Assembly (NCBI GenBank): GCA_959601025.1
Contig: CAUGOD010000002.1
Location: 6,173 to 70,172, forward strand
From: an uncultured Oscillospiraceae bacterium
GTDB taxonomy: Bacteria > Bacillota > Clostridia > Oscillospirales > Acutalibacteraceae
Direction: 5' to 3'
Length of the DNA: 64,000 nt
This document shows, one piece after another, positions 19,335 through 59,568 of the stretch (positions are counted from its first letter, which is position 1; every line of letters begins with the position of its first letter). The position numbers were made by a program, and so were the translations under genes. Below the pieces are notes generated by a model. The model was given only the letters and a program-made list of their open reading frames with translations. It did no database searches and had not been told where the DNA came from.

Positions 19335-19427
19335 CGTGCTCCTCCCTTCTTTCCCCAAAGGCGGAAAATAGAAATTTTTTTACCTTTTAGGCTTTTCAAT
19401 CTTATCAAACTACTAAAACTACCCAAA

Positions 19428-20375: not shown

Positions 20376-20413
20376 GGACACCTTTCCTTTCTTCGGCACA
20401 GGATCCCCCCGGC

Positions 20414-25384: not shown

Positions 25385-27901
25385 TTATTTCTTTTTCCTG
25401 CGCAGGGCCAGCAGGGTAACGCCGGCGGTCAGCAGCAGGGCCGCGGGGATTATCCGGACAGCCTCGCCGGTGTTCACCTGTCCGCCGCCCTCTCCGTCCA
25501 GAGTACGGGGCTCGGAACTAAACACGACCGAATCGACGTAGATGGTGCCCTTCCAGGCCTTGGTACTCTTATAATCCTCGGCGTTGAGCTGGAATTCCAC
25601 GCCGCGGGCCATCGCTTTTTCATAGGAGGAGATATCCACGTTGTACATGTGGGCGCCTTTTTTGATGCTGACCAGCTGGTACCAGCTCTCTCCCCAGTCG
25701 GGATCGCCCAGAATCACCCGCAGGACGCAGTCCACGTCGGAGTTCATCCAGAAGGAGAGGTAATTGGTGTCCTCGTTCAGGTAGAACCAGTCGTCATAGG
25801 AGGCGGGCTCCATCACCCACTGTGTTTTTGTCCAGTCGCCCTCCATGTTCACCATCATCTTCAGGCTCCGCTTTCCGCTGTATACGGGAGAGGTAACCAG
25901 ATCGAAATGCTTGCCCTGCTTCATATAGGGACCGACCTTCGGGGTGAGTTCCCCTTCCTCAAAATCGGTGATCGGCAGGATCACGACGGCGGGCTTGGTG
26001 GTTTCGGTCGCGGAGGGAGCGGTGGGCACGACCGGCTCCTCGCCCGGCAGGGCGCGGGGGGTATCGGTCAGGACGACCGAATCCATATACCCGAAGCCGG
26101 AGAAGGGCTTGGGCGCGGCGGCGTAGTATTCGCCCTTCAGCTGAATCAGAAGGCGGGAGAAACCGCGGAAGGCGGAGTCCGAAACGTCGATGTTGTACAT
26201 ATGCGTACCCGCCTTGATGGAAAGGTCATAGTATTCGTCGCCGTTCCAGTCGATATCGGCCAGCTGCAGCTTCGCCGTGCAGTCCACGTCGGAGCTCATC
26301 CAGAAGGAAAGGTACAGCTTGTCGCTGTCCGGAAAAACCGTGGCCTTGTCGATCATATAGGTGATGGTGGTGTATTGGTTCTCGTATTTCAGGGGCAGCT
26401 TCATGCTCTTGGAACCCTCAAACTTCAGATCGGACGCGGTTTCCACAGTAAGGCTGCCGTCCGTCGGCCAGCTGACTACGAACAGCGGGTCGCCGTCTTC
26501 AAAGCCGGTGATCGGGACGACCAGCGCTTCCGGCTCGGTGGGTTCGGTCTGGCTGGGCTGCGTGCTCTCGGAGGGCACGGTGGATTCCGTCGAGGGGGTG
26601 GTGGGCTGGTCGGCCGTTCCGCGCGGGGTGTCGGTGACGATTACGGAATCCAGATAGACATAGCCCGAATACGGGGCCTGCTCCGGAATGTTCCCGGACT
26701 TGCCGCCGTTGCTCCAGTTGTTGATCATGACGCCGCGGACGCCGGCAAAGGGGCAGTCGGAGATATCCACGTTGTACAGGCGCGCGCCCTGCTGGATGTT
26801 GACGATGTAGTATTTATCGCCGTTCCAGTTGCTGTCGCAGAGCTGGATTTCCACCGCGGCGTCCACTTCGGAATCCGCCCAGAAAGAGAGGTATTTCTTC
26901 GCCATGCCTTCGGGGAAGGTCACGGTGCTGCCGATTGCATAGGTGATTGTACTCCACTGGTTCTGGCTTTCGAGCTTCAGCTTCAGGCTGCCGGCGCCCT
27001 CGTATTTCGGGCTGGATGCGGCTTCCACGGTAACGCTGCCGTCATCGGGATAGTTTACCTTGATCTGTCCGGCATCCTCACAATCCGCGATCACGACGCT
27101 TTTGGCGCCGGTCTGCGTGGGCTCCGTGGTCGGTGTGGTTTCGGAGGAGGTCGTCTCCGTCGGCTGGGCGGACTGCGTGGCTTCGCTTGTCTGGGAGCTG
27201 GAAGAGCTTGCTGTGCTTGCCGTAGTGGCTTCCGTCGTGGTGGTTACGGCCGCTTCGCTGGTGGAGGTGGTCGTCTCGCTGGGAAGTTCGCGCGGGATGT
27301 CGGTGACGATTACGGAATCCAGATAGACATAGCCCGAATACGGGGCCTGCTCCGGAATGTTCCCGGACTTGCCGCCGTTGCTCCAGTTGTTGATCATGAC
27401 GCCGCGGACGCCGGCAAAGGGGCAGTCGGAGATATCCACGTTGTACAGGCGCGCGCCCTGCTGGATGTTGACGATGTAGTATTTATCGCCGTTCCAGTTG
27501 CTGTCGCAGAGCTGGATTTCCACCGCGGCGTCCACTTCGGAATCCGCCCAGAAAGAGAGGTATTTCTTCGCCATGCCTTCGGGGAAGGTCACGGTGCTGC
27601 CGATTGCATAGGTGATTGTACTCCACTGGTTCTGGCTTTCGAGCTTCAGCTTCAGGCTGCCGGCGCCCTCGTATTTCGGGCTGGATGCGGCTTCCACGGC
27701 AACGCTGCCGTCATCGGGATAGTTTACCTTGATCTGCCCGGCATCCTCACAATCCGCGATTACGACGCTTTTGGCGCTGGTCTGCGAGCCGTCGCCGAGC
27801 GCGGAAAACGCCGGCAGGGCGGTAACGGCAAACGAGAAAACGGCGCTGATCGCCAGTACGGCTTTCACCAGTTTGCGGGGCTTTTTTTCCAGTTTATCCA
27901 T
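25385..27901 (-). CDS. secreted membrane-anchored protein (838 aa) with four CBM-like beta-sandwich modules (two identical) separated by Thr/Ser/Pro/Glu linkers
   Basis: Start MDKLEKKPRKLVKAVLAISAVFSFAVTALPAFSA with RBS GGAAGGAG. Modules of ~160 aa (…YLSFWADSEVDAAVEIQLCDSNWNGDKYY…YVYLDSVIVTD). C-terminus …GQVNTGEAVRIIPAALLLTAGVTLLALRRKKK (hydrophobic anchor plus basic tail). The 25367..27931(+) track ORF is a Gly/Arg-rich antisense artefact. Confidence 0.75.
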   Translation of the reverse strand: MDKLEKKPRKLVKAVLAISAVFSFAVTALPAFSALGDGSQTSAKSVVIADCEDAGQIKVNYPDDGSVAVEAASSPKYEGAGSLKLKLESQNQWSTITYAIGSTVTFPEGMAKKYLSFWADSEVDAAVEIQLCDSNWNGDKYYIVNIQQGARLYNVDISDCPFAGVRGVMINNWSNGGKSGNIPEQAPYSGYVYLDSVIVTDIPRELPSETTTSTSEAAVTTTTEATTASTASSSSSQTSEATQSAQPTETTSSETTPTTEPTQTGAKSVVIADCEDAGQIKVNYPDDGSVTVEAASSPKYEGAGSLKLKLESQNQWSTITYAIGSTVTFPEGMAKKYLSFWADSEVDAAVEIQLCDSNWNGDKYYIVNIQQGARLYNVDISDCPFAGVRGVMINNWSNGGKSGNIPEQAPYSGYVYLDSVIVTDTPRGTADQPTTPSTESTVPSESTQPSQTEPTEPEALVVPITGFEDGDPLFVVSWPTDGSLTVETASDLKFEGSKSMKLPLKYENQYTTITYMIDKATVFPDSDKLYLSFWMSSDVDCTAKLQLADIDWNGDEYYDLSIKAGTHMYNIDVSDSAFRGFSRLLIQLKGEYYAAAPKPFSGFGYMDSVVLTDTPRALPGEEPVVPTAPSATETTKPAVVILPITDFEEGELTPKVGPYMKQGKHFDLVTSPVYSGKRSLKMMVNMEGDWTKTQWVMEPASYDDWFYLNEDTNYLSFWMNSDVDCVLRVILGDPDWGESWYQLVSIKKGAHMYNVDISSYEKAMARGVEFQLNAEDYKSTKAWKGTIYVDSVVFSSEPRTLDGEGGGQVNTGEAVRIIPAALLLTAGVTLLALRRKKK
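26627..27110. repeat. intragenic direct repeat, copy 1 (~480 bp)
   Basis: Near-identical to 27296..27790, offset 669 bp (223 codons, in frame). Only a handful of mismatches near the 3' end. Encodes the duplicated CBM-like module. Confidence 0.85.
27296..27790. repeat. intragenic direct repeat, copy 2 (~480 bp)
   Basis: See copy 1. Sequence identity read directly by comparing 26631-27110 with 27300-27780. Confidence 0.85.
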
Positions 27902-28478
27902 CCTTCGTACTCCTTCCTGTTCATCCCTTGAATAATATAAAGAGTTAAGCAAGCGGGAAGGACAGGGACGCGGCCCGTTCTCCCGTCCGGCGTCTCCGTT
28001 ATCCGCCCGACAGGATCCTTCCAGTGTCTTCAATATAGCACGAACGGAGAAAAGCGTCTTTGACAGATTGTGCGGTTCGGCGCTCCAAACATGCTTTTTT
28101 GGGGAATTAATTCAAAAATTATCCAATAAATTGATGGTCTGTTATTCAGCATTCCGCCTTTTTCGATTGTCCAAGGCGGAAAAGCGAGGCGATTTGCTCA
28201 AAGGACGCGCTGGCGGTGGGAGCCGCCAGACAGCCCGCCGAAATTTCCGGCATGGCCTCCCGCGCCCGCTGCAGTTGGGTGAGGTTGAGGGAAATGAGGG
28301 ATACCTGATCCGCTACCTCATACTCATCGATCCGCTCCCTGGGCTTTTCAATGATCGCCGCCTGACCGCTACAGCCTATATATAGCACGGATGGAGAGAA
28401 CCGTCTTTGCCAAAACATGCTGTTGTTTATGTAAATTAAGCGAAATATATGATACTTCTTGGCGAATCCTTTGATTTC

Positions 28479-35670: not shown

Positions 35671-35821
35671 ACAAAAAGCCTCCCTTTGTCAGTTTTTTAT
35701 TTTTCCGGGCGGCGCTCCGGCGCAGCAGAAGATTCTGTGCGTAAAGCGCGGCTTTTCCAGACATACTAAAACGATGCAGCCGGCCGTCCCGCTGAAACGC
35801 GGGAGACGACGCGGGGGCCAA

Positions 35822-36010
35822 GCGCCGCCTGGCCTGCTTCTCTGCCAGCGCTCTCCGGCGGCGCTTTTGAGAAATGCTGTCGCATTTCTCCGAAACGTCT
35901 GCATACCGTAACGCCGCCTGGCCGGGTTCTCTGCCAACGCTTTCCGGCGGCGCTTTTGAGAAATACCTGCCGGTATTTCTCCTTGCTGTCATTATATCAT
36001 AGCGCCGCGG
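35822..36010. repeat. intergenic palindromic repeat array (two ~90-bp units) upstream of the ADH gene
   Basis: Each unit has AGCGCCGCC…CCGGGTTCTCTGCC…TTTCCGGCGGCGCT (outer inverted repeat) followed by the perfect palindrome GAGAAATGCTGTCGCATTTCTC / GAGAAATACCTGCCGGTATTTCTC, then CATTATAYCATAGCGCCGC. Confidence 0.7.
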
Positions 36011-36041: not shown

Positions 36042-37148
36042 CTATTTCACGAAAAGAGAGCGGAACAGCGCGGCGGCGTTATCCGGTGTGAAGCCGCCGG
36101 GGGTGCGGGTGAAATTTTTCAGTCCTTCCCAGCGTTCGGCATACCCGGCGATCTGTTCCTCCGTCATGGTCACGTCGTACCGGATCAGCGCGTCCAGCGA
36201 GGCGAACAGACGATCCCGGCCGCCGCAGAGAGCGAAAAGCCGCTCCGCCCGGTCGGGGGCGTATTTCTCCGCCCGGCGGAGAAGGGCGGGCAGGAAGGCC
36301 GCGCAGGCCATCCCATGGGGAACGCCGTATTCCTCTGTAAGAATGTAACCCAGCGGATGGGGAAAGGCCGTGCCGCAGGCGTTGAGTACCATCCCGGCCC
36401 AAAGGGAGCCGTAGTACAGCCTCTCCCGCATCCCGGCGCCGGGGAGTCCGTCGTTTTCCGCCAGCCAGTGCAGGCCGCCTGAGACCATGGTCAGCGCCCG
36501 CTCCCCAAAGGCGGCGCTTACGTCGCCGCAGCCGGGGGAAAGCCAGCCCTCCGCCACATGGGAGAAAGCGTCCAGCGCGGTGGAAACCGTGGTTTCCCGG
36601 GAAGAGGAGTGGGTATAGCGGGGATCGGCGAACACATACCGGGCATAGCACTGCGGGTGGGTGACGCTCTTCTTGCGTTTCTCCCGGTCCAGCGTGAGGA
36701 CGGCGACCGCGCTTACCTCGCTGCCGGTGCCGGCGGTGGTTCCCACCAGCGCCAGGGGAAGGGAGGGACGGCGGAGCTGTCCCGCCATCAGCTCATAGCC
36801 CTTGGTGGCATTGTTGCCGGCGAGCCAGGCGGCCGCCTTGGCCGCGTCCATCACGGAGCCGCCGCCGATGCCGACGATAAACTCGGATCGGCAGGTTTCC
36901 GCCGTGAAGGCCGCGGCCTGGCACTGGGAAAGCAGCGGATTGGCGCTGACACCGGGAAAAACCGTCGCGTCTACGCCGGCGGCTTCCAGCGTGTTCAGCA
37001 TATCGTCCAGCGCGCCGCTCTCTTTGGCGGCATGGGCGCCGGTGATCACCAGGCAGCGCCGCCCCAGCCCCCGCAGCCGGGAGCCCTCCTTTTTGACGCA
37101 GCCCTCGCCGCTGAAAGCCTGTACCGGCATGTGGAATGTAAAATCCAT
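36042..37148 (-). CDS. iron-containing alcohol dehydrogenase family protein
   Basis: 368 aa; GGGS-type nucleotide-binding motif (VGIGGGSVMDAAKA) and Fe-ADH-like His cluster region. RBS AGGAAGGA. Confidence 0.85.
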   Translation of the reverse strand: MDFTFHMPVQAFSGEGCVKKEGSRLRGLGRRCLVITGAHAAKESGALDDMLNTLEAAGVDATVFPGVSANPLLSQCQAAAFTAETCRSEFIVGIGGGSVMDAAKAAAWLAGNNATKGYELMAGQLRRPSLPLALVGTTAGTGSEVSAVAVLTLDREKRKKSVTHPQCYARYVFADPRYTHSSSRETTVSTALDAFSHVAEGWLSPGCGDVSAAFGERALTMVSGGLHWLAENDGLPGAGMRERLYYGSLWAGMVLNACGTAFPHPLGYILTEEYGVPHGMACAAFLPALLRRAEKYAPDRAERLFALCGGRDRLFASLDALIRYDVTMTEEQIAGYAERWEGLKNFTRTPGGFTPDNAAALFRSLFVK

Positions 37149-37309: not shown

Positions 37310-37440
37310 CGTTTGCTTGCGGCGCAATTGAGAAATACCGATCGGTATTTCTCCCAACCGACATTATACCATAGCGCCGCCCAACCGGGTTCTCTGCCGG
37401 CGTTTTCCGGCGGCGCCTAACGACATTATACCATAAAGAT
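37310..37440. repeat. third copy of the palindromic repeat family, on the other side of the ADH gene
   Basis: GCGGCGCAATTGAGAAATACCGATCGGTATTTCTCCCAACCGACATTATACCATAGCGCCGCCCAACCGGGTTCTCTGCCGGCGTTTTCCGGCGGCGCC…ACATTATACCATAAAG. Same modules as 35822..36010. Confidence 0.7.
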
Positions 37441-37475
37441 TGCTTTTTTGGGCGAAAGATTCTCGGGAGGAGCTC

Positions 37476-37865
37476 ATGGACGGAAAAAAGCCGCGCGTTC
37501 TCGGTCTGCGCCGGGGGGATATTCTTCTGGCGGCCGGACTCTGTGCCGTCGTCGTCCTCCTGTTCGGCGGCCGTGCCCTTTGGACTAAGCCGGGGACACA
37601 GGCGGTTTTGACCACCCCGGCGGGGGAGCGGACGCTCGACCTGTCGGCGGACGCTTCCTTTTCCGTCGAGGGGAAGGGGGGGATCGCCGTGGTGATCCGG
37701 GTGGAAAACGGCGCGGTGCGGTTTGAAAGCAGCGGCTGTCCCGACCAGATATGCGTACACAGCGGTTGGCTGAGGGACGCGGGGGATGCTGCCGCCTGTC
37801 TGCCGGCGGGGGTGGCGCTCCGGGTCGCCGGCGGGGAACAGCCGGTGGATGCGGTCGCCGGATAA
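37476..37865 (+). CDS. NusG domain II-containing protein (small membrane-anchored beta-domain protein)
   Basis: Start MDGKKPRVLGLRRGDILLAAGLCAVVVLLF with GGGAGG RBS. …VENGAVRFESSGCPDQICVHSGWL… is typical of NusG_II proteins that pair with Gx transporters. Confidence 0.6.
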   Translation: MDGKKPRVLGLRRGDILLAAGLCAVVVLLFGGRALWTKPGTQAVLTTPAGERTLDLSADASFSVEGKGGIAVVIRVENGAVRFESSGCPDQICVHSGWLRDAGDAAACLPAGVALRVAGGEQPVDAVAG

Positions 37866-37914
37866 CCGCTCCGCCTGTCGGGCGGAAATACGGATAAGCG
37901 AGGGGAACGCGGGA

Positions 37915-38430
37915 TTGGAACCGATCAAAAAGAACAGCCCGGCGAAGCGGGCGGCCCTGCTCGGCATCCTGTGTGCGCTGGCCGTGGCCCTGTCGTTTCT
38001 GGAAGGGCTGCTGCCCTCCCTGCCGGTTCCCGGCGCGCGGCTGGGGCTTTCCAACATCGTGACGATGTTCGCGCTCTCCACACCCGGTCTCGGCCTGCCG
38101 GCGGCGCTGGTCATCACCCTGGCGAAAGCGCTGTTCGCGCTGCTGCGGGGCGGAACCGCCTTCTTTATGAGCCTGTCGGGCGGCCTGCTCAGCACGCTGG
38201 TCATGGCGCTGGCATGGCGGGTTTTCCGCCGGCGCCTGAGCTTTGTCGGGATCGGCGTGCTCGGGGCGATCGCTCATAACGGGGGACAGCTTGGCGCGGC
38301 CATGCTGCTGTTAGGCCCCGCGCTTCTGGCCTACGCGCCCTGGCTGCTGCTCGCGGCGCTGTTCGCCGGCGCGGCGACGGGGATTACCCTGAACGTGGTC
38401 ATGCCCGCCTTGGAGCGGATGAATATATAA
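37915..38430 (+). CDS. Gx transporter family protein (heptaprenyl diphosphate synthase component-I-like membrane protein)
   Basis: Polytopic membrane protein …LLGILCALAVALSFLEG…GLSNIVTMFAL…GAIAHNGGQLGAAMLL…. Start uncertain; proposed TTG at 37915 with GAGGGGAA RBS. The track ORF begins upstream inside the previous gene. Confidence 0.55.
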   Translation: MEPIKKNSPAKRAALLGILCALAVALSFLEGLLPSLPVPGARLGLSNIVTMFALSTPGLGLPAALVITLAKALFALLRGGTAFFMSLSGGLLSTLVMALAWRVFRRRLSFVGIGVLGAIAHNGGQLGAAMLLLGPALLAYAPWLLLAALFAGAATGITLNVVMPALERMNI

Positions 38431-38527
38431 TAAAGGAAAAGAAGCGGCGCTTTCCCAGGGACGGGCTCCTTGCGGGGCTTCCCGGTGGGATGCGGCGCGC
38501 GATGATCCAGAAAGGCATGGTAATCCT

Positions 38528-39910
38528 ATGGCAACAGCGGAATTTGGCGGACCGGTCGGAAAGCCGATCGGGAACGCGAAGCGTCTGTGGCAGTCCCGGA
38601 CGCGGGGCGGCGTCCACGCTCCTCACCGGAAGAACACGGCGGAGAGTGAAACCGTGGTGATGCCGCCGCCCGAAAAGATTATTCTGGCGATGTCCCAGCA
38701 TCTCGGCGCGCCCTGTGTCCCGACTGTGAAGGTGGGGGACACGGTGGAGGTCGGCCAGGTGGTCGGGGACAGCGACAAGCCGGTTTCCGCCCCCGTCCAC
38801 AGCGGGGTTTCGGGAAAGGTGACGGCCATTACCGAGCTGCTCCTCCCCGGCGGACGGAAAACGCCGGCGGTGGTAATCGAATCGGACGGCGAGGGTCGCG
38901 TCCATGAGAGCGTGAAGCCGCCGGTGATCGAAAGCCACGACGACTTCCTCCGGGCGGTGCGGGCCTCCGGCCTGGTCGGCTTGGGCGGTGCGGGCTTCCC
39001 CACCCATATCAAGCTGAACCCGCGGGACGTGGACGCGATCGACACCCTCATTATCAACGCAGCGGAATGCGAGCCGTACATAACCGCCGACTATCGCGAA
39101 TGCATGGAGAATTCCTGGGATATTATCTCCGGCGTACAGTCGGTCATGGAATTCCTGGACGCCGCCCACGTCGTTATCGCGGTGGAGAGGAACAAGCCCG
39201 CCGCCATTGCCGAGCTGTCCAAGATCGCCCGCGGGGTCTCCACCCCGGAACGGACGGTGCGGGTGAAGGCGCTGCCGGCCCGGTATCCGCAGGGGGCGGA
39301 GAAGGTGCTGATTCAGGCCTGTACCGGCCGCCGGGTCCCGCCTGGCAAGCTTCCCTCCGACGTGGGCTGCGTGGTGATGAACGTGACCTCCGTCGCCTTC
39401 CTCTCCCGGTACTTCAAAACCGGGATGCCCCTGATCGACAAGCGGCTGACGGTGGACGGCTCGGCCGTCGCCTATCCCAAGAACGTGCGGGTCACGGTCG
39501 GCACCCCGATCCAGGACGTGCTCTCCTTCTGCGGCGGCCTCAAGCGGGAGGTTCGCAAGCTCCTGATGGGCGGCCCGATGATGGGGCTGGCGCTGATGGA
39601 CGCCGCCCTGCCGGTACTCAAGCAGAACAACGCCATTCTTGCTTTTGCGGAGGAGGACGCGCAGAGCGTTCCCGCTTCGGTCTGCATCCGCTGCGGCCGG
39701 TGCGTGGAGGCCTGCCCCATGCATCTGGTTCCTCCCTCCATCGCCGCGGCGTATAAGAACGGCGATACCGCCGCCATGGCGAAGCTCGGCGTGATGACCT
39801 GTATGGAATGCGGCTGCTGTTCCTTCTCCTGCCCCGCCCACCGCTATATCGTGCAGACGATGCGGATGGCGAAGGAGGCGGTCCGCAATGCGCCGAAGGA
39901 CGGAAAATGA
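38528..39910 (+). CDS. rnfC: Rnf electron-transport complex subunit C
   Basis: GGVHAPHRKNTAE N-terminal motif, NADH/FMN-binding region, two 4Fe-4S ferredoxin motifs (CIRCGRCVEACP, CMECGCCSFSCP). The start may lie downstream of 38528. Confidence 0.9.
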   Translation: MATAEFGGPVGKPIGNAKRLWQSRTRGGVHAPHRKNTAESETVVMPPPEKIILAMSQHLGAPCVPTVKVGDTVEVGQVVGDSDKPVSAPVHSGVSGKVTAITELLLPGGRKTPAVVIESDGEGRVHESVKPPVIESHDDFLRAVRASGLVGLGGAGFPTHIKLNPRDVDAIDTLIINAAECEPYITADYRECMENSWDIISGVQSVMEFLDAAHVVIAVERNKPAAIAELSKIARGVSTPERTVRVKALPARYPQGAEKVLIQACTGRRVPPGKLPSDVGCVVMNVTSVAFLSRYFKTGMPLIDKRLTVDGSAVAYPKNVRVTVGTPIQDVLSFCGGLKREVRKLLMGGPMMGLALMDAALPVLKQNNAILAFAEEDAQSVPASVCIRCGRCVEACPMHLVPPSIAAAYKNGDTAAMAKLGVMTCMECGCCSFSCPAHRYIVQTMRMAKEAVRNAPKDGK

Positions 39911-39940
39911 CCGCCCGGCCGTGTTGAGGGAGGAATCCGG

Positions 39941-40615
39941 ATGGGACTTTTTGATAAACGAAAAAGCCGGAAAAGGCAGCGGCGGGAATGCGGCGGCCCC
40001 GTGTGCTATGACGAGAACGACTGCGCGGCGCTGGAGGAATACATAGGAAATACCTTCGGATCGTTCTCCAACGTGTTCCATGAGATTGTTTCACCGGATA
40101 TCCATGTGGATATCGCCGTTGTCGAGCCTAACGAGCGGTTTGACGGCTATACGCTGGTGACGATGGGCATGGGCGCCCGCCGCATGAATATACCGGACGA
40201 CGCGCCGGAATCGCTGGCGTACGTCGAGCTGGCGGCCTACCTGCCGAAGGACTGGAATCTGAAGAGCGGGGAGGAGAGCTGGTATTGGCCGATCCGCTGG
40301 CTCAAGCTTCTGGCCCGGCTGCCCCTGAACGAGGATTCCTGGCTGGGCGCCGGCCATACGGTCGCCAACGGAGGCCCTTTCGCGGAGGATACCGCCCTGG
40401 ACAGCGTTCTTCTGATCGACGCCATAGCCCCGGGGAATGAGCTGGTTCTCCCCGGCGGAAGAAAGATCAATTTTTACACCATGGTTCCTCTGTATGAGGA
40501 GGAATCGGTGTACAAGCAGCGGTACGGCGCGGAGGCGCTGCTGTCCCTGTTTGAGGAAAAGCAGCTGCCGTTTCCCCCGGTTATTGACAAGAACCGACGA
40601 AACGTTTGCCAATGA
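39941..40615 (+). CDS. suppressor-of-fused (SUFU)-like domain protein inserted between rnfC and rnfD
   Basis: 224 aa: MGLFDKRKSRKRQ… …GYTLVTMGMGARRMN…WYWPIRWLKLLARLPLNEDSWLGAGHTVANGGPF… pattern of bacterial SUFU-like proteins. Strong RBS GAGGGAGGAA; 30 nt after the rnfC stop. Confidence 0.7.
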   Translation: MGLFDKRKSRKRQRRECGGPVCYDENDCAALEEYIGNTFGSFSNVFHEIVSPDIHVDIAVVEPNERFDGYTLVTMGMGARRMNIPDDAPESLAYVELAAYLPKDWNLKSGEESWYWPIRWLKLLARLPLNEDSWLGAGHTVANGGPFAEDTALDSVLLIDAIAPGNELVLPGGRKINFYTMVPLYEEESVYKQRYGAEALLSLFEEKQLPFPPVIDKNRRNVCQ

Positions 40616-40681
40616 ATTTGGCGTTCGGATACTTCCTGCCCGGATCGGGCCGGAAAAGCATAAAAAGGAGTGAACGGGTCG

Positions 40682-41623
40682 ATGGCTTCGACGGAAAAGC
40701 CTTTGATGATAACCTCGTCCCCCCACCTGCACTGCGGGATGAATACCCGCGGGGTGATGCTGGACGTGCTGATCGCCCTGCTGCCGGCGGCGGTAGCCTC
40801 CGTGCTGCTGTTCGGATGGCGCGCACTGGCGGTGGAGCTGGTCTGTGTCGCCTCCTGCATGGCGGCGGAGGTGCTCAGCCGCGCGGCGATGAAGCGGGAC
40901 CAGACGGTGGGCGACCTTTCCTGCGTCGTGACCGGGCTGCTGCTCGCCTTCAACCTGCCGGCGACTATGCCGCTGTGGCAGGCCGCCCTTGGCGGGGTGG
41001 TGGCGATCGTGGTCGCCAAGCAGATGTTCGGCGGGCTGGGGCAGAATTTTGTGAACCCGGCGCTGGCAGGCCGCATCGTGCTGATGGCGAGCTTCCCGGA
41101 AGCGATGAACAATTGGGTGGTGCCCCTGACCGGCACCGGCGCGGACGCCGTGACCGGCGCGACCCCTCTTGCCGGCGGGACGTATTCCCTGACCGAAATG
41201 TTTTTCGGTATCCGGGGCGGCTGCCTCGGCGAAACCTGCGCCATGGCGCTGATCCTCGGCGGGCTGTATCTGGTTATCCGCCGGGTGATTTCCCCGGTGA
41301 CGCCGCTGGTCTATATTGGTACGGTGTTCGTCCTCTCCTGGCTGTTGGGGGAGGATCCGGTGCGCCAGATTCTTTCCGGCGGTCTGATGCTCGGCGCGAT
41401 CTTTATGGCGACTGATTATACCACCTCCCCAATCAACAAGGCGGGCAAGGTGGTGTTCGCGCTTGGCTGCGGGGCGCTGACGGTGCTGATCCGCCGGTTC
41501 GGTTCCCTGCCGGAGGGCGTGTCCTTCGCCATTGTGATCATGAACATTCTGGTCCCCCTGATCGAGCGGGCGACCCGTCCCATCCCCTTTGGGGAGAAAC
41601 GGAGGCTGCGCCGTGAACAGTAA
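40682..41623 (+). CDS. rnfD: Rnf complex subunit D
   Basis: Polytopic; RnfD/NqrB-like (…SSPHLH…, …TGATPLA… FMN-attachment region). AAGGAG RBS 12 nt upstream of the ATG at 40682. Confidence 0.85.
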   Translation: MASTEKPLMITSSPHLHCGMNTRGVMLDVLIALLPAAVASVLLFGWRALAVELVCVASCMAAEVLSRAAMKRDQTVGDLSCVVTGLLLAFNLPATMPLWQAALGGVVAIVVAKQMFGGLGQNFVNPALAGRIVLMASFPEAMNNWVVPLTGTGADAVTGATPLAGGTYSLTEMFFGIRGGCLGETCAMALILGGLYLVIRRVISPVTPLVYIGTVFVLSWLLGEDPVRQILSGGLMLGAIFMATDYTTSPINKAGKVVFALGCGALTVLIRRFGSLPEGVSFAIVIMNILVPLIERATRPIPFGEKRRLRREQ

Positions 41624-42191
41624 GAGCCGAAAGAACATAAAGGATATTCTGATTTCCGCCGGTTCTCTTGCGTTGATCGCGGGCGTTGTAACGGCGGCTT
41701 TGGCCGGCACCAACGCGTTGACCAAGGACACCATCGCCCAGCGGAACGAGCAGGCTGAAACCGAGGCGAGACTTCAGGTGATCGATGCGGAAGCCTTTGA
41801 AAAGCAGACTTTGACCGACACGGACGGCAAGGAAGTCGTCTATTACGCCGCCAAAAAAGGAGAGGAAACGGTGGGCTATGTGTTCACCGTGAGCTCGACC
41901 GGCAAAAGCTCCGGGCTGGTGGTGATGACCGGCATCGCCGCCGACGGGAAGGTGACCGGCGTGACTGTCACCGACGACAACGAAACCGCCGGTTATGTGG
42001 ACAAGGTGAAAAAGGGCGGACTGTTTGACGCGTTCCGGGAAAAGGCCGCGGCGGACGGCGGCTTCACCCTCGGGGAGGATGTCGACGGTATCTCGCAGGC
42101 CACCAAAACCTCCCGCGGCGTGACCGACGGGGTCAATAAAGCGGTCGCCTATTATCGGCAGATTACCGGCGGGACAGGGGGAGAGGAATAA
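41613..42191 (+). CDS. rnfG: Rnf complex subunit G (FMN-binding)
   Basis: GTG start after GGAGG. N-terminal TM segment plus FMN-binding domain (…GYVFTVSSTGKSSGLVVMTGIAADGKVTGVTV…DGISQATKTSRGV…). Confidence 0.8.
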   Translation: MNSKSRKNIKDILISAGSLALIAGVVTAALAGTNALTKDTIAQRNEQAETEARLQVIDAEAFEKQTLTDTDGKEVVYYAAKKGEETVGYVFTVSSTGKSSGLVVMTGIAADGKVTGVTVTDDNETAGYVDKVKKGGLFDAFREKAAADGGFTLGEDVDGISQATKTSRGVTDGVNKAVAYYRQITGGTGGEE

Positions 42192-42887
42192 ATGGCAAAA
42201 GCATACTTACAGACCTTTACCAAGGGGCTTGTCCGGGAAAACCCGGTCCTCCGTCTGGTGCTGGGCACCTGCCCCACCCTCGCGGTCACAACGGCGGCGA
42301 TGAACGGGCTGGGGATGGGTGCGGCCGCCACCTTCGTACTGGTCTGCTCCAACATCGTGATTTCCCTGCTCCGCAAGGTGATCCCCGGCAAGGTGCGGCT
42401 TCCCGCCTTTATCGTGGTCATTGCCGGCTTCACCACCATCGTGCAGATGCTGGTGAAGGCTTACCTGCCGGATATCGACAAGGCGCTGGGCATCTACCTG
42501 CCCCTGATCGTGGTTAACTGTATCATCCTCGGCCGGGCGGAGGCGTTCGCCAGCAAGAACAGCGTCGGGCTTGCGGCGCTGGACGGACTGGGGATGGGCG
42601 CGGGCTTTACTGCCGCGCTGATCATCATGGGCGGCATCCGTGAATTTCTGGGCAACGGCACCCTCTTCGGCTGGCCGGAAGGCGGACTGATCCCGCCGAT
42701 CACGATTTTTATCCTGCCGGCTGGCGGATTCTTTGTGTTCGGAATGCTGATCTGGCTGACCAACAAGCTCTCGGTACGGATGGAGCGCGGCGAGACCCGC
42801 CGCGAGACGGCGTCCTCCGTCTGCGCCGTCTGCCCGAGTGCGGCTGCCTGCGGACGGAGCGGGAAGGAGGGCGGCTGCCATGAATAA
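42192..42887 (+). CDS. rnfE: Rnf complex subunit E
   Basis: MAKAYLQTFTKGLVRENPVLRLVLGTCPTLAVTT…, canonical RnfE/NqrD. Its 3' end overlaps the rnfA start. Confidence 0.85.
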   Translation: MAKAYLQTFTKGLVRENPVLRLVLGTCPTLAVTTAAMNGLGMGAAATFVLVCSNIVISLLRKVIPGKVRLPAFIVVIAGFTTIVQMLVKAYLPDIDKALGIYLPLIVVNCIILGRAEAFASKNSVGLAALDGLGMGAGFTAALIIMGGIREFLGNGTLFGWPEGGLIPPITIFILPAGGFFVFGMLIWLTNKLSVRMERGETRRETASSVCAVCPSAAACGRSGKEGGCHE

Positions 42888-43467
42888 CACCGGCCTGTTT
42901 GCCATTCTGATCGGCGGGCTGCTGGTCAACAATTTTGTGCTGTCCCAGTTCCTCGGCATCTGCCCCTTCCTCGGGGTGTCCAAAAAGCTGAACTCGGCGG
43001 TCGGCATGTCCCTCGCGGTCATCTTCGTCATGCTGATGGCGACGGCTGCGACCTGGCCGATCTATACCTACATCCTCGTGCCGAACGACCTGACCTATTT
43101 ACAAACCATCGTCTTTATCCTGATTATCGCGGCGCTGGTACAGCTGGTGGAGATCGCCCTCAAGCGCTTCGTACCGCCGCTTTACAATTCGCTGGGCATT
43201 TACCTGCCCCTGATCACCACCAACTGCGCCGTGCTGGGCGTGACCATCCTGAACATCGACAGCGGGTACGGCTTTGTGCAGTCGCTGGTCAACGCGCTGG
43301 GCGCGGGCGGCGGTTTCCTGCTGGCAATGGTGATGTTCGCCGGGGTGCGGGAACGGCTGGAAAGCGCGGATATTCCAGAAGGGCTGAAGGGGCTGCCGAT
43401 CACGCTGGTGTCGGCGTCCCTGGTGTCGGTGTCCTTCCTCGGCTTTCAGGGCCTGTTCGGCCTGTAA
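42880..43467 (+). CDS. rnfA: Rnf complex subunit A
   Basis: MNNTGLFAILIGGLLVNNFVLSQFLGICPFLGVS…, canonical RnfA/NqrE. The track ORF is N-extended by 14 codons. Confidence 0.85.
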   Translation: MNNTGLFAILIGGLLVNNFVLSQFLGICPFLGVSKKLNSAVGMSLAVIFVMLMATAATWPIYTYILVPNDLTYLQTIVFILIIAALVQLVEIALKRFVPPLYNSLGIYLPLITTNCAVLGVTILNIDSGYGFVQSLVNALGAGGGFLLAMVMFAGVRERLESADIPEGLKGLPITLVSASLVSVSFLGFQGLFGL

Positions 43468-43522: not shown

Positions 43523-44335
43523 ATGAATTCGATTATACTGGCAATTTTGATCCTCGCGGGGCTGGGGCTGGCCGCGGGCCTGGTACTCGCGGTCGCTTCG
43601 GTCGTGATGGCGGTGCCGCGGGACGAGAAGGCGGAGGCGCTGCGGGACGTGCTCCCGGGCGCGAACTGCGGCGCGTGCGGCTATTCCGGCTGCGACGGCT
43701 ACGCCAAGGCGATGGCCAACGAGGGCGCGGCAGTCGGCCTCTGCTCCCCCGGCGGCGCGGCGGTGGCTCAGGCGACGGCGAAGATTCTCGGTGTGAAAAG
43801 CGACGGGGTGGAAACCCGCACCGCGCTGGTCCGCTGCGGCGGCTGTGAGGAGTTCACCGCCCGGAAGCTGGAATACCGCGGACTGAGCTCCTGCGTGGCG
43901 GCGAACCAGTTCTACGGCGGCGACTGGCTGTGCATGTACGGCTGTCTCGGCCATGGGGACTGCAAGGCGGTGTGCGAATACGGCGCGATCTCGGTGGAAA
44001 ACGGGTTGGCGCGGATCGACCCGGCCCTCTGCCGCGGCTGCGGGCTGTGCGTGAAGGCCTGCCCCAAGCATTTGATCGAGCTGGTGCCCGGATCAGCCAA
44101 AGGCGTGGTGCGCTGCTCCAGCCACGATAAGGGCGCGGCGGTGCGGAAAGCCTGCTCCAAGGGTTGCATCGGCTGTATGAAGTGCACCAAGGTCTGCGAG
44201 CACGACGCGATCCATGTGGAGAACTTCCTCGCCTCCATCGACAAGACGAAATGCGTCGGCTGCGGCGCGTGCGCCGATACCTGTCCGGTGGGCTGCATCA
44301 CGATTTTTGGCAGGGAACCGGCTGCGGCGGAATAA
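43523..44335 (+). CDS. rnfB: Rnf complex subunit B (ferredoxin-type)
   Basis: N-terminal TM helix, Cys-rich region (CGACGYSGCDGYA) and multiple 4Fe-4S motifs (CRGCGLCVKACP, CIGCMKCTKVCE, CVGCGACADTCP). Confidence 0.85.
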   Translation: MNSIILAILILAGLGLAAGLVLAVASVVMAVPRDEKAEALRDVLPGANCGACGYSGCDGYAKAMANEGAAVGLCSPGGAAVAQATAKILGVKSDGVETRTALVRCGGCEEFTARKLEYRGLSSCVAANQFYGGDWLCMYGCLGHGDCKAVCEYGAISVENGLARIDPALCRGCGLCVKACPKHLIELVPGSAKGVVRCSSHDKGAAVRKACSKGCIGCMKCTKVCEHDAIHVENFLASIDKTKCVGCGACADTCPVGCITIFGREPAAAE

Positions 44336-44410: not shown

Positions 44411-44440
44411 TTGACAAATCCATGGCCCATACTATATAAT
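44411..44440 (+). promoter_or_regulatory. sigma-70-type promoter for the tRNA cluster
   Basis: TTGACA (44411-44416), 16-18 nt spacer, TATATAAT (44433-44440). Lies ~35 nt upstream of the first tRNA. Confidence 0.55.
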
Positions 44441-44472
44441 AAACTGCGCCTTGGTTAAAGGCGCTTTTTATG

Positions 44473-44549
44473 GCGGTATAGCTCAGTTGGCTAGAGCATG
44501 CGGTTCATACCCGCAGTGTCGTTGGTTCAAATCCGACTACCGCTACCAT
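44473..44549 (+). tRNA. tRNA-Met (CAT), elongator type
   Basis: GGCGGTATAGCTCAGTTGGCTAGAGCATGCGGTTCATACCCGCAG…CGCTACCA. Anticodon loop TTCATAC. Cloverleaf consistent; closely resembles Bacillus elongator tRNA-Met. Encoded CCA. Confidence 0.85.
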
Positions 44550-44553
44550 TTTG

Positions 44554-44627
44554 GCCCGATGGTCAAGCGGTTAAGACACCGCCCTTTCACGGCGGTAACA
44601 CGGGTTCGATTCCCGTTCGGGTCACCA
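44554..44627 (+). tRNA. tRNA-Glu (TTC)
   Basis: GGCCCGATGGTCAAGCGGTTAAGACACCGCCCTTTCACGGCGGTAACACGGGTTCGATTCCCGTTCGGGTCACCA. Nearly identical to Bacillus tRNA-Glu. Confidence 0.9.
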
Positions 44628-44647
44628 CGCAGCGGCGCTGCGTTTAC

Positions 44648-44724
44648 GGGCGTATAGCTCAGCTGGTTAGAGCGCTTGCTTCACACGCAAGAGGTCAGCG
44701 GTTCGAGTCCGTTTACGCCCACCA
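44648..44724 (+). tRNA. tRNA-Val (CAC)
   Basis: GGGCGTATAGCTCAGCTGGTTAGAGCGCTTGCTTCACACGCAAGAGGTCAGCGGTTCGAGTCCGTTTACGCCCACCA. Anticodon loop TTCACAC. Confidence 0.85.
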
Positions 44725-50538: not shown

Positions 50539-51906
50539 ATGAAAAAGGCAGTAACCTTAGTAGTAGCGGTTGCCATGCTAATGAGCTGCATCCTGCTGAA
50601 CACCGCGGCGGCGGCGAACGTCTTCGTCGACGAAGCGACAAAGGATTTCGCAGGCGTATTCGAGTACAGCCAGGATACCTGGCAGTTCGAGCAAAACAAT
50701 GACATTGAGGCGACGCTCTATTCCAAGAAAAATATCAACGAGGCATATCTTACGTATAAAGTGGACGGAGCAATCACCAATTTTCGGGTTCTCGCGCATA
50801 TCGCCACCGGATTCGGCGATTTCAGCCTGGATGCGGAAATCTATCTGTCCACCGATAACGAAACCTGGAACCAGGTCGAATTCGACTGCACCAAGCCGGT
50901 TTATAACAGCCACTATCCGACGGAGTCGACAGCCTACTGGTGGGATCAGACGGCAACGGCCAAGGAGAGCCTTTCCGGCAGCTATTCCTATCTGAAAATC
51001 GTTCTCAAGAAATTCGATCAGGTGCCATGGCGTACGGTTATTGACCAGGTGACGATCCAGTATCAGCCGGACGGCTCCACCCCGAGCACCTCCAGCTCGA
51101 CGGCGTCTACTGAGACGACGGCTTCAACCACCGAGTCCACCGCCGCTTCGACCACCGAATCCTCGGCGGCCACGACAGAACCCACCGCCGCCCCGACCAC
51201 GCCCGCGCCGGCGGCTGGGCAGCTGGTCGACGATACCGACGCGAGCTTCTCCAAAACGTTTGACGTTTCCGACAATATCCAGTATGAGGAGAATCCGGAT
51301 CTAAACCGGAACCTGTTCTCCAAAAAGCGCCCGACCAGCCTGCCGGATCCCGACGGCTATGTGATTTACAAGCTGGACGGCGACGTGACCGCGTTCACGA
51401 TCAACGCGGTGGTCTGCAACGCGGACCAGGGGAACAACGGCGTTGTGGACCGCGACCTGTCTGTGTACGTTTCCAAGGACGGCGAGAACTGGGTCAAGGC
51501 GGATATGGAATTCACCGATCCGGCGGTTATCGAAGGCACCAACAACTATTGGATGGACAGCACGGTGACCGGCGCGGTGGATGCGGCTGCGGGCTACCGG
51601 TATGTAAAGGTGCAGCTCAACAGCGTCGATATTGTCGCGGGTATCCCGACTTGGGCGGTTATGCTCGATAAGATCACGATCGACTATCAGACGAACGGCA
51701 CTGCGGAACCCACCGCGACCCCGACGGGAGCGGCTACGGAGGCCCCGGCCAAGATGTCTTCCACGGAAGCTCCGGCAACCACTGCCGCGTCGAAGGATTC
51801 GCCGGTCACGGGCGAGGGCGGCGCTGGAATGGCGGCGGCCCTGATGAGCGTCGCCGTGCTGAGCGCCGGCACTCTGGCGGTCCTGAAAAAGCGGTCCGGC
51901 CGCTGA
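50539..51906 (+). CDS. secreted protein with two beta-sandwich (CBM-like) modules and SPVTG sorting signal
   Basis: RBS AAGGAGG. Signal peptide MKKAVTLVVAVAMLMSCILLNTAAAA. Two related ~150-aa modules (…YLKIVLKKFD…, …YRYVKVQLNSVD…). Ser/Thr/Pro linker. C-terminus …DSPVTGEGGAGMAAALMSVAVLSAGTLAVLKKRSGR. Confidence 0.75.
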   Translation: MKKAVTLVVAVAMLMSCILLNTAAAANVFVDEATKDFAGVFEYSQDTWQFEQNNDIEATLYSKKNINEAYLTYKVDGAITNFRVLAHIATGFGDFSLDAEIYLSTDNETWNQVEFDCTKPVYNSHYPTESTAYWWDQTATAKESLSGSYSYLKIVLKKFDQVPWRTVIDQVTIQYQPDGSTPSTSSSTASTETTASTTESTAASTTESSAATTEPTAAPTTPAPAAGQLVDDTDASFSKTFDVSDNIQYEENPDLNRNLFSKKRPTSLPDPDGYVIYKLDGDVTAFTINAVVCNADQGNNGVVDRDLSVYVSKDGENWVKADMEFTDPAVIEGTNNYWMDSTVTGAVDAAAGYRYVKVQLNSVDIVAGIPTWAVMLDKITIDYQTNGTAEPTATPTGAATEAPAKMSSTEAPATTAASKDSPVTGEGGAGMAAALMSVAVLSAGTLAVLKKRSGR

Positions 51907-54592: not shown

Positions 54593-54637
54593 GGCCCATC
54601 AACGATTGAGAAGCTTGGGAGTGAGACTGTGCGTAAT

Positions 54638-57562
54638 ATGAGCACCAATGGTTCCAAACGATGGAGAAGAATCCTCGCCGCCCTTGCGGCAGGTATGCTG
54701 CTGGTCTCGGCCGCGCCCTGGGGCGCTCTGGCGGAAAAGGCGGATAAAGCGGGCGAAACGGGAAGGCTGCCGGAGGCGGCGGAGGGCGCCGCTTCGGATA
54801 TTCCGGACTATTTCGGCTACACCCAGGTGCATGGAGAGCAGCCGCGGGCGAAGATGCCGGTCACCCTTCCGGCCAAGGAAGGCGCGCTTTCCGAAAACGA
54901 CGCGGAACGCCGGGCGGAGTACGAGGGAGAGACGGACGTTGCCATCCTTCAAAACGGCGGCTGGATCGAATGGAGCTTTACCTTATCGGAATCCGCCCTG
55001 TATACCCTGGATCTGCGGTATATCGCTCTTCCAGGGACTGGCCGCGACCTGAAAGCGGCATTCGCCCTGGATGGAGCGGCCCCCTTCTTTGGCGCGTCAG
55101 AGCTGGTGCTGAACCGCGTCTGGAAGGACGAGGAAAAGGGGGAGATGGCGCAGGATAAGCAGGGCAACGACCTGATTCCCAATCAGGTCGAGGTGTTTGA
55201 ATACCAGAACCTGCTGCTGACCGACAACTCGGGCTTCCTTTCCGGGGCCTTTGAGGTATATCTGGAGGCGGGAGAGCACACCATCCGTCTGACCAATAAC
55301 GACGATGCGATGGGCGTCGCCTCCCTGACACTGGCCGGGAAGGAGGAGCTCCCCTCCTACGCCGAGGTGAAGGCGGAATACGACGAGATGGGTTACCGGC
55401 CGGTGGGCGGGGCGTACGTCGAACAGCAGGCGGAAAAGACGGAAAAGAAGTCGAGCCAGATTCTGTATCCGGTGTACGACCACACCGAAGCCGCCACCGT
55501 CCCCAACGATCCGGCCAAAATCCGCCGGAATGTCATCGGCCAGTCCAACTGGTCGGATTCCGGCATGTGGATCACTTACCAGGTGGAGGCGCCGGAGGAG
55601 GGGCTTTACCTTCTTTCAATAAAATACCGGCAGAATTCTCAGCTGGGGATGTCCACCTACCGCAATATTTACGTCAACGGAGAAATTCCCTTCCGGGAAT
55701 TTGAGAACGTGTCCTTTCCCTTCAACTTCAACTGGCGGAACATGACTGTTTCCGACGCGGAGGGCAACCCCTGCTATGTCTACCTGAGGAAGGGGACGAA
55801 CGAGATCCGGCTGGAAGCGACGGTCGGCAAATGGACCGATATCCTGCAGGAGGTCAACGCCCTCAACACGGAGATGAACAACCTTTACCGCCGGATTATC
55901 GTGGTGACCAGCACCAGCCCGGACACCTACCGCGATTATCAGCTGGACGTGGAGATCGACGGGCTGGTGGATACGCTGCAGCGCCTGTCGGACTCCCTGT
56001 CCTCCCTGGCGGATACCTTTGACGCGGTCAACGGGGAAAAATCCACCCAGTCCGAAACCCTTCGCCGGGTGGCGGAGCAGCTCCAGAGCTTTGCGGAGGA
56101 CCCGGACGAGATTCCGTCCCGTCTGGGAAATTTCCGGGATAATATCGGCACCATTTCCACCTGGCTGCTGAACAATGTGAAGCAGCCGCTGGAGATTGAT
56201 TACTTCGTGTTCCGCTCCACGGATCAGGAGCTTCCCGCCGCAAAGGCCGGCTTCTTCCAGAGTCTCTGGTTCGGGGTGCGGCAGTTCTTGGCGACCTTCA
56301 GCAGCGATTACAACAGCATGGATGACTGGGAGACGGACGAGGCGATTACGGTATGGTCGACCGACGGCCGAGACCAGGTGCAGGTGCTGAAGGACCTGAT
56401 TACCAACGAATTCACGCCCCAGACCGGTATCCGCGTCAATCTGAACGTGGTACAGACCGGCTTTATTGAAGCAACCCTCGCCGGGCTCGCTCCGGACGTC
56501 GGCATCGGCATGGCCCGCGGCCAGCCCGTCAACCTGGCCTGCCGCGGCGCGCTGGTGGACCTCAGCCAGTTTGATACCTTCGGCGAGGTGATGGCCCGCT
56601 TTTCGGAGGACGCGGCCGTACCCTATCAGTACGACGGCGCGACATACGCCCTGCCGGTTACCCAGCTTTTCTTCATGATGTTCTACCGCACCGATATTTT
56701 CGGGGAGCTGGGCTTGGCCGTTCCCCAGACCTGGGACGAGGTGGACGACGTGGTCGCGGTGCTCCAGCGGAAGAACATGACCATGGGCCTGCCTTATACC
56801 ACCGTTACCGCCCAGACGGCGGTGGATACCGGCGTAGGCGCGAAGGACCTGTTCTCCCTCCTCCTGCTCCAGTATGGCGGGACCTATTACAACGAGGATC
56901 AGACCGCCACCGCGCTGGATTCCCGCGTGGCGCTGGACGCGTTTAAGCGGTGGACGGGATACTATACCGAATTGGGCTTCGACCTGACCTACGATTTCAA
57001 CACCCGCTTCCGTACCGGCGAAATGCCCCTCGCCATCCAGAGCGTGGGTATGTACAGCACCCTGCAGGCCGCCGCTCCGGAAATCCGGGGACAGTGGGCG
57101 ATGGCGCCGGTTCCCGGCATCGAGCGGGGGGATGGGAGCATCGACCGCTCGGTCGGCGCTTCCGGCACGGCCGGCGTAATCTTTGAAAAGGCGGAAAACA
57201 AGGAGGCCTGCTGGAGGTTCCTCGACTGGTACACCAGCACCGAAACCCAGAAGGAGTTCGGCGCCCGGGTGGAAAACCTGCTCGGCCCGGCCGCCCGGTA
57301 TCAGACCGCCAACATCGAGGCCTTCAACGACCTGCCCTGGAGCAGCGCCGAACTGGAGAACCTCGAGTTTCAGCGGAGCTTTGTGAAGGAGATTCCGGAG
57401 GTTCCCGGCAGTTATTTCGTCGCCCGCTGTCTCGACAACGCTTTCCGCGACGTGTTGTACAGCAGTAAGAATCCCCGGACGGCGCTGGAGGCGGAAAACG
57501 AGAACATCAACCGGGAGCTCGAGCGCAAGCGTATCGAGCTGCGCTCCCGGAAAACGCGCTGA
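54638..57562 (+). CDS. giant extracellular solute-binding protein (cluster B paralog of 20414..23299)
   Basis: Start MSTNGSKRWRRILAALAAGMLLVSAAPWGALA (a GTG at 54629 is also possible). Same architecture and many shared blocks with the cluster A SBP (…YRDYQLD…, …QPLEIDY…, …FYRTDIFGELGLAVPQTWDEV…). Confidence 0.8.
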   Translation: MSTNGSKRWRRILAALAAGMLLVSAAPWGALAEKADKAGETGRLPEAAEGAASDIPDYFGYTQVHGEQPRAKMPVTLPAKEGALSENDAERRAEYEGETDVAILQNGGWIEWSFTLSESALYTLDLRYIALPGTGRDLKAAFALDGAAPFFGASELVLNRVWKDEEKGEMAQDKQGNDLIPNQVEVFEYQNLLLTDNSGFLSGAFEVYLEAGEHTIRLTNNDDAMGVASLTLAGKEELPSYAEVKAEYDEMGYRPVGGAYVEQQAEKTEKKSSQILYPVYDHTEAATVPNDPAKIRRNVIGQSNWSDSGMWITYQVEAPEEGLYLLSIKYRQNSQLGMSTYRNIYVNGEIPFREFENVSFPFNFNWRNMTVSDAEGNPCYVYLRKGTNEIRLEATVGKWTDILQEVNALNTEMNNLYRRIIVVTSTSPDTYRDYQLDVEIDGLVDTLQRLSDSLSSLADTFDAVNGEKSTQSETLRRVAEQLQSFAEDPDEIPSRLGNFRDNIGTISTWLLNNVKQPLEIDYFVFRSTDQELPAAKAGFFQSLWFGVRQFLATFSSDYNSMDDWETDEAITVWSTDGRDQVQVLKDLITNEFTPQTGIRVNLNVVQTGFIEATLAGLAPDVGIGMARGQPVNLACRGALVDLSQFDTFGEVMARFSEDAAVPYQYDGATYALPVTQLFFMMFYRTDIFGELGLAVPQTWDEVDDVVAVLQRKNMTMGLPYTTVTAQTAVDTGVGAKDLFSLLLLQYGGTYYNEDQTATALDSRVALDAFKRWTGYYTELGFDLTYDFNTRFRTGEMPLAIQSVGMYSTLQAAAPEIRGQWAMAPVPGIERGDGSIDRSVGASGTAGVIFEKAENKEACWRFLDWYTSTETQKEFGARVENLLGPAARYQTANIEAFNDLPWSSAELENLEFQRSFVKEIPEVPGSYFVARCLDNAFRDVLYSSKNPRTALEAENENINRELERKRIELRSRKTR

Positions 57563-57621
57563 AAACCAACGAAACAAAGCCGTTCGCCTGCCGGCGGACG
57601 GCGTGCGGGAAGGGCTTGATT

Positions 57622-58557: not shown

Positions 58558-58622
58558 CGCCGCAGGCCCCTTCTCCGGCTGGATGGAGCGGGGCCGCCGA
58601 ATGAAACGCAAAGGGTGATTCT

Positions 58623-59480: not shown

Positions 59481-59568
59481 GAGGGGCGCCCGTTCCCGTC
59501 CAGAATTTTGCGATCTTCGGGGCGAAACCGCCTCGTCAGAAAGCCGGAAAGGCGTGATTTGGATTACC

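Follow-up and report, generated by a model that had tools for sequence, protein, structure and literature searches.

A SUFU-like gene of probable Imm-SuFu type between rnfC and rnfD in an uncultured gut Oscillospirales bacterium

The window, by which we mean the whole 64-kb stretch of DNA analysed, contains an rnf operon in which an open reading frame of 224 codons, encoding a protein of the SUFU family, lies between rnfC and rnfD. Pfam and TIGR profile matches agree with the gene order rnfC-(SUFU)-rnfD-G-E-A-B given in a preliminary description of this DNA, an order that is otherwise the canonical rnfCDGEAB. The genes and features of this region are:

37476-37865, forward strand: NusG domain II gene, the first of a co-directional block upstream of rnfC (Pfam NusG_II, E=3.5e-18; public gene call, contig L001)
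37849-38430, forward strand: gene for a Hpre_diP_synt_I-family membrane protein, immediately upstream of rnfC (PF07456, E=3.5e-32)
38528-39910, forward strand: rnfC (TIGR01945, E=3.4e-142; RnfC_N, Complex1_51K, SLBB and Fer4 domains)
39902-40663, no strand assigned: inserted segment without a counterpart in the nearest related genome, L009, made up of the ORF, a leader that holds its ribosome-binding site, and a short trailer (blastn and alignment)
39926-39935, forward strand: Shine-Dalgarno-type ribosome-binding site GAGGGAGGAA of the SUFU-like gene (read from the sequence)
39941-40615, forward strand: SUFU-like gene, probably of Imm-SuFu type, 675 nt, 224 aa (PF05076, AlphaFold2, Foldseek, invariant residues)
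40633-40655, forward strand: weak hairpin with the core GCCCG-GAT-CGGGC, lacking a T-run and not terminator-like (RNA fold of the SUFU-rnfD spacer)
40682-41623, forward strand: rnfD (PF03116, E=3e-111; TIGR01946, E=3e-90; gene call)
41613-42191, forward strand: rnfG (FMN_bind, E=8.8e-14; gene call)
42192-42887, forward strand: rnfE (Rnf-Nqr PF02508, E=1.5e-68)
42880-43467, forward strand: rnfA (Rnf-Nqr PF02508, E=8.6e-61; gene call)
43523-44335, forward strand: rnfB (FeS PF04060 and several Fer4 domains)

The rnfC stop codon TGA (39908-39910) is separated by 30 nt from the SUFU-like ORF, whose ATG at 39941 is preceded at a distance of 7 nt by the GGAGG within GAGGGAGGAA, and the ORF ends with its stop codon at 40613-40615, leaving a spacer of 66 nt before the rnfD ATG at 40682, a start that agrees with the public gene call. 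The ORF length, both spacers and the strong ribosome-binding site had all been given correctly in the preliminary description, as sequence and gene calls confirm. No terminator-like site was detected between the SUFU-like gene and either neighbour, and the cassette holds no evident promoter or terminator of its own: a promoter-like match at 40606-40633 is weak (9/12), and the predicted fold of 40600-40690 (-28.1 kcal/mol, z=-1.17) is not significant. The earlier view that the gene is co-transcribed and not a pseudogene remnant therefore stands for the intact gene with its own ribosome-binding site, and co-transcription with the flanking rnf genes is what we infer from the uninterrupted spacers.

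The SUFU assignment extends over the full length of the family profile (Pfam PF05076, positions 2-171 of 172, E=1.1e-37, 130 bits against a cut-off of 25); NCBIfam models gave no match to the protein. An alignment of 64 homologous sequences has 31 invariant columns, all 31 of which are retained in the window's protein, among them V45, H47-E48, S51-P52-D53-I54-H55, D57, T74, G76, G78-A79, W116-P117, W134 and H139. With this alignment as input, AlphaFold2 returned a model with a mean pLDDT of 89.9 and a pTM of 0.85, in which disorder is confined to the Lys/Arg-rich residues 1-17, and the protein is thus confidently modelled as the α+β fold of the SUFU N-terminal domain. When the model was compared with the PDB using Foldseek, the best 24 matches were all Suppressor-of-fused structures and the next match had E=0.06. 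[quoted passage not shown] The SUFU fold put forward from the sequence is thereby confirmed in the model. The link to known structures required the structure search, as a phmmer search of PDB sequences gave only a marginal match (3k5j, E=0.51). Because all family-invariant residues are kept, the model is confident and the top PDB matches are exclusively SUFU proteins, the ORF is a real gene and not a chance reading frame.

The human and Drosophila Suppressor of fused N-terminal domains (1m1l, 4blb) share this fold (TM 0.65-0.68, E about 1e-8) at a sequence identity of about 15%. In eukaryotes the protein contains a second domain as well and serves as a tether for Gli transcription factors, and we know of no Gli-type Suppressor of fused pathway in bacteria. 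The gonococcal homologue 3k5j (YP_208451.1) is, like the window's protein, a single-domain bacterial SUFU-like protein of similar fold, although the two are only marginally similar in sequence and the window's gene is without a toxin neighbour. The SuFu-superfamily gene of Neisseria is reported to lie in a CDI-like/maf toxin operon beside the HNH-fold toxin NGO1392 (PMC3113570). The motif set described for the SuFu superfamily is GxS, E, E and DxxR (Zhang et al. 2012, Table 3, PMC3482391). Candidate counterparts among the invariant residues of the present clade are G76/G78 (in TMGMGA, GxG versus GxS), E96, E188 and R219, with D215 standing upstream of R219 in the window's protein.

The position of the gene was compared across related species by scanning one genome per species (GTDB) for RnfC. 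The scan yielded 80 loci whose RnfC is 59-95% identical to that of the window; they belong to 'Ca. Avimonas' species, to Acutalibacteraceae and to further uncultured Oscillospirales. In none of the 80 did tblastn find a SUFU homologue within 6 kb of rnfC, and in all of them rnfD directly follows rnfC, with an estimated spacer ranging from overlap to 140 nt, bar three artefactual negative values. The insert is missing from the 6 kb around rnfC in all 80, and no relative has the same gene at another place near its rnf operon, an arrangement that would have spoken against the unusual organisation described earlier. The nearest genome, L009 (CAJJLZ010000001.1), has an RnfC 95% and an RnfD 96% identical to those of the window, with 86-89% identity at the DNA level. 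Here blastn aligns window positions 37312-39901 with L009 4726-7374 and 40664-44724 with 7409-11532, so that 762 bp of the window stand against 34 bp in L009, and the alignment is a clean indel. Homology restarts at the rnfD ribosome-binding site AAGGAGTGAACGGG, and its AAGGAG (40665-40670) and the start context are conserved between the two genomes. This comparison shows the SUFU-like gene to be a lineage-specific insertion in the rnfC-rnfD spacer. Its absence from 80 related species makes a recent passenger the most likely reading, in preference to a new subunit of Rnf. The preliminary description had called the gene Rnf-associated and unusual: its position bears this out, but the arrangement is found in one species only and the comparative data argue against a functional link.

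The base composition of the insert would suit a foreign origin followed by partial amelioration, the GC content being 0.58-0.61 versus 0.63-0.69 in rnfC and the GC3 of the SUFU-like gene 0.73 versus 0.82-0.86 in rnfC, rnfE, rnfA and rnfB (rnfG 0.75). A mobile-element origin (IS, MITE or integron cassette) was considered and rejected, as the insert edges (39700-40900) show no paired terminal inverted repeats, direct repeats or target-site duplication and the called genes of the region include no recombinase; the repeats present in 39700-40900 are 10-15-nt matches at chance level. A search for a plasmid or phage vehicle by tblastn returned five plasmid records of at most 49% identity and one phage record of 28%, and no donor among them. 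Relatives in IMG/VR occur at two loci only, both of the large multidomain type.

Within the species the gene is uniformly present. Among contigs with an identical RnfC it lies downstream in all nine distinct places compared, the remaining contigs being grouped as similar, and 16 contigs (L001-L008, L095-L102) have 100% DNA identity over the 3.1 kb from rnfC to rnfD. Since all contigs retrieved carry it, the SUFU-like gene is present throughout the sampled, apparently clonal population, and the identity over 3.1 kb points to a lineage that is very clonal or has spread recently. Presence/absence polymorphism and dN/dS were set aside as sources of evidence, as the 16 identical contigs offer zero variation. 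These contigs come from many independent human-gut samples, some recognisable by record name, and others are ENA, Logan or NCBI assemblies.

Outside the species the next-nearest proteins among 5.8 billion sequences are only 55-57% identical. An exhaustive search of 1.84 billion cluster representatives found 2,597 relatives at E≤1e-3, of which 271 reach E≤1e-30, and 125 of the best 150 exceed 260 residues in length, indicating that they are multidomain proteins; many homologues are joined to Imm33/DUF2185, TPR or DUF7832. A metagenome scan with the family alignment recovered a further set of 80 loci, in which the domain shares 47-55% identity with the query, and in most of these the SUFU module is inside an ORF of about 700 to 2,075 residues. 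Pfam architectures of representatives from these loci include TPR+SUFU, SUFU+DUF7832+DUF4253 and Imm68+Imm33+SUKH(SMI1_KNR4)+DUF4261+SUFU+DUF7832+DUF4253. No rnf gene lies within 5 kb of the relative at any of these 80 metagenomic loci, and the neighbours include Imm-NTF2, DUF4253, UPF0167 and SF0329 proteins. Relatives of similar length that stand alone are scattered, and no neighbour recurs among the unrelated genes around them. One such gene follows an FBPase gene and precedes a resolvase gene; others come after a pyridine-nucleotide-disulfide oxidoreductase/rhodanese gene or a GGDEF-EAL gene, are flanked by BatD-like genes or by 5-FTHF cyclo-ligase and metallophosphatase, or adjoin GmrSD, a DUF4143 ATPase or a YhcG nuclease. 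The clade as a whole, which spans Firmicutes, spirochaetes, fusobacteria and methanogens, remains about 50% identical and has His, Asp and Glu residues that never vary in the alignment.

SuFu proteins were proposed as immunity proteins, the second most versatile scaffold against polymorphic toxins, by Zhang, Iyer and Aravind (2011, PMC3113570), and SUFU-domain MafI proteins are listed among the immunity genes of Neisseria (PMC4287609). Polyimmunity proteins combine SuFu, SUKH, Imm33, Imm66-69 and TPR in one polypeptide, with up to 10 immunity domains in Firmicutes and usually no adjacent toxin gene (Zhang et al. 2012, PMC3482391). The domain fusions of the relatives described here match this polyimmunity pattern, as judged from their Pfam architectures. 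The window's protein belongs to the same Pfam family and has the same α+β fold as the Imm-SuFu immunity proteins of both studies by Zhang and colleagues, and its closest relatives share the Imm33, Imm68, SUKH and TPR fusions of that family, but the window's copy differs in being a solo domain in a core bioenergetic operon with no toxin or polyimmunity neighbour. The preliminary description had called bacterial SUFU-like proteins poorly understood, some of them being proposed as immunity or chaperone-like proteins; the comparative data point to the immunity option. Two relatives 49-53% identical to the query (P0013 and P0105) are from the methanogenic archaea Methanolapillus millepedarum and Methanimicrococcus sp., the former an Imm33+SUFU fusion on a 1.97-Mb contig. 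The 2011 survey found no SUKH or SuFu immunity proteins in archaea (PMC3113570). Set against that earlier absence, the archaeal relatives suggest a later transfer into gut-associated methanogens.

No toxin, secretion-system or further immunity gene was found among the gene calls of 31.9-48.6 kb or by Pfam analysis of 20 large ORFs elsewhere in the window. The genes covered serve carbohydrate utilisation and housekeeping. As candidates for a cognate toxin the 20 ORFs were rejected, since their only matches were to glycoside hydrolases, ABC sugar transporters, AraC regulators, DUF5696 and Yip1/NHL proteins. The remainder of the 64 kb is a carbohydrate-utilisation region made up of these classes, with hydrolases of families GH98 and GH31, and the window also holds biotin genes, an Fe-ADH gene, mnmA, nadA and a tRNA cluster.

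Imm-SuFu proteins are predicted to be protective, in that they would bind and block the toxin domains that competing bacteria deliver, and the immunity function of the SuFu superfamily is itself mainly a comparative-genomic prediction. We consider it reasonably probable, if some way from assured, that the SUFU-like gene is an orphan passenger of the Imm-SuFu type that was horizontally acquired, is expressed by read-through of the rnf operon, has a toxin-binding role and forms no part of Rnf. The product would be a stand-alone, cytoplasmic α+β protein of the bacterial SuFu superfamily. A minimal cassette, consisting of the ribosome-binding site, the ORF and a trailer of about 50 nt, would have been acquired horizontally and inserted between rnfC and rnfD in one species-level lineage after its split from the nearest sampled relative. 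The host is an uncultured bacterium of the human gut, a member of the Oscillospirales with 'Ca. Avimonas' and Acutalibacteraceae as its relatives. As no promoter or terminator is evident in the cassette, and transcription of rnfDGEAB has to run through it, the gene most likely depends on the rnf operon for its expression, as a passenger, and on its own ribosome-binding site for translation. The role of its product would be that of an orphan immunity protein whose cognate toxin gene is not nearby, and any toxin-neutralising activity is predicted entirely from family membership and from the domain fusions of the relatives. The family, Imm-SuFu, is already known; what is unusual is its placement inside an rnf operon.

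This placement raises the question of whether the SUFU-fold scaffold, a binder of proteins, has been co-opted by Rnf in this lineage, be it as a cytoplasmic subunit, for assembly or for regulation, paralleling RnfH. The gene does lie inside the operon, with a strong ribosome-binding site, between rnfD and the gene for the cytoplasmic NADH-side subunit RnfC, it is on every same-species contig retrieved, and the small, cofactor-less RnfH of Azotobacter vinelandii Rnf1 provides the precedent of a lineage-specific, rnf-encoded subunit in a restricted lineage (PMC12174285). RnfH is resolved in the structure of the Rnf1 complex, where it contacts RnfC and RnfB (PMC12174285). The SUFU-like gene occurs in one species only, and any contact of its product with Rnf would be hypothetical; nor is RnfH known to be a SUFU-fold protein. 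Against co-option, the gene is missing near rnf in all 80 related species, including the one with 95-96% identical RnfC and RnfD, and rnf genes are found at none of the 80 loci encoding relatives. The closest relatives are modules of polyimmunity proteins, and the residues kept in the window's protein are those invariant in the family generally, with no obvious lineage-specific remodelling. As there is no phylogenetic co-occurrence with rnf, an Rnf accessory role is unlikely, and we judge co-option in the manner of RnfH very improbable; nothing in the gene comparisons supports a functional tie to Rnf, curious as the position is. Still less probable, in our estimation, is that an immunity scaffold has been domesticated as a species-specific cytoplasmic Rnf partner which binds RnfC or RnfB and so modulates electron flow or assembly, or which shields Rnf from an incoming toxin aimed at this essential redox pump, in which case the placement between rnfC and rnfD would secure matched expression. 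An interaction of the protein with Rnf, unsupported here, would if true constitute a new type of Rnf accessory and put an immunity scaffold to housekeeping use.

Two further readings concern what the protein does now and leave Rnf aside. The gene might be idle, fixed by drift or hitch-hiking because nothing short of a precise excision would keep rnfD expressed, and itself expressed with no current benefit because the matching toxin is not met; to this we give a minor though by no means trivial chance. Its surroundings lack a cognate toxin and an immunity cluster, solo relatives occupy seemingly arbitrary positions, and as the 16 contigs sampled are clonal (100% DNA identity over 3.1 kb) the presence of the gene on all of them says little about selection. 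Yet the ORF is intact, every family-invariant residue is kept and the ribosome-binding site is near-optimal, and the partly ameliorated composition suggests the gene has been retained for some time without decay. The protein could also have a non-immunity function common to the conserved SUFU clade, enzymatic, metal-binding or as a general adaptor, that is independent of Rnf. The invariant His/Asp/Glu-rich motifs (V45, H47-E48, S51-P52-D53-I54-H55, D57 and H139) and an identity of about 50% across distant phyla, above what is usual for immunity proteins in an arms race, favour such a function, and conservation of this degree, unusual for a protein co-evolving with toxins, could signal a different conserved activity. 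The repeated fusion to Imm68, Imm33 and SUKH and the occurrence of Imm-NTF2 as a neighbour weigh against it, as does the finding that SUFU proteins, whose action is binding and not catalysis, are its sole neighbours in structure, and we regard this reading as improbable.

If the SUFU-like gene is indeed an orphan Imm-SuFu-type passenger, a single orphan immunity-type ORF that shows no machinery for mobility can become lodged in a spacer within a core, conserved energy-conservation operon and persist there, which bears on how gut bacteria build up and express defences against the toxins of competitors. As a speculation, the rnf location may itself aid persistence: the operon promoter would supply expression and, as only a precise deletion or excision would preserve the expression and translation of rnfD, the gene would be hard to lose. 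The locus also carries a warning for annotation, in that operon position is weak functional evidence when the arrangement is confined to one lineage.

Elsewhere in the region, the NusG_II gene and the gene for the Hpre_diP_synt_I-family protein form a pair (37476-38430) that lies immediately upstream of and co-directional with rnfC and is kept in most of the 80 related genomes; as a candidate for conserved accessory genes linked to Rnf, this pair is far stronger than the SUFU-like gene. Further upstream, an intergenic repeat of 70-110 nt (35795-36008 and 37310-37416) lies on both sides of the Fe-ADH gene (36042-37148) and holds the palindrome GAGAAATACC...GGTATTTCTC, several copies also being present in L009, the sister genome. 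Upstream of the NusG_II gene a different strain (L002/L096) has FAD-oxidoreductase genes where the window has the Fe-ADH gene, and with the repeat on both sides of the exchanged gene the repeat may mark a recombination hotspot. At the other end of the operon a cluster of tRNA-Met(cat), tRNA-Glu(ttc) and tRNA-Val(cac) (44472-44724) lies directly 3' of rnfB, preceded by a perfect 12/12 σ70 consensus (TTGACA, 18 nt, TATAAT; 44411-44440) and a bidirectional terminator-like hairpin (44446-44464).

In other parts of the window two large ORFs, 25385-28033 on the reverse strand (882 aa) and 50539-51906 on the forward strand (455 aa), have coding-like composition and no Pfam match at E≤1e-5. The window also contains two paralogous carbohydrate-utilisation clusters with the same unusual gene set, one at 13737-23299 on the reverse strand and the other at 54629-63998 on the forward strand. 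In each, a DUF5696 protein is encoded together with a Yip1+NHL-repeat protein (about 705-710 aa) and a protein of about 960-980 aa whose C-terminal domain is of the solute-binding SBP_bac_1 family, and AraC regulators and GH98-like hydrolases are nearby.
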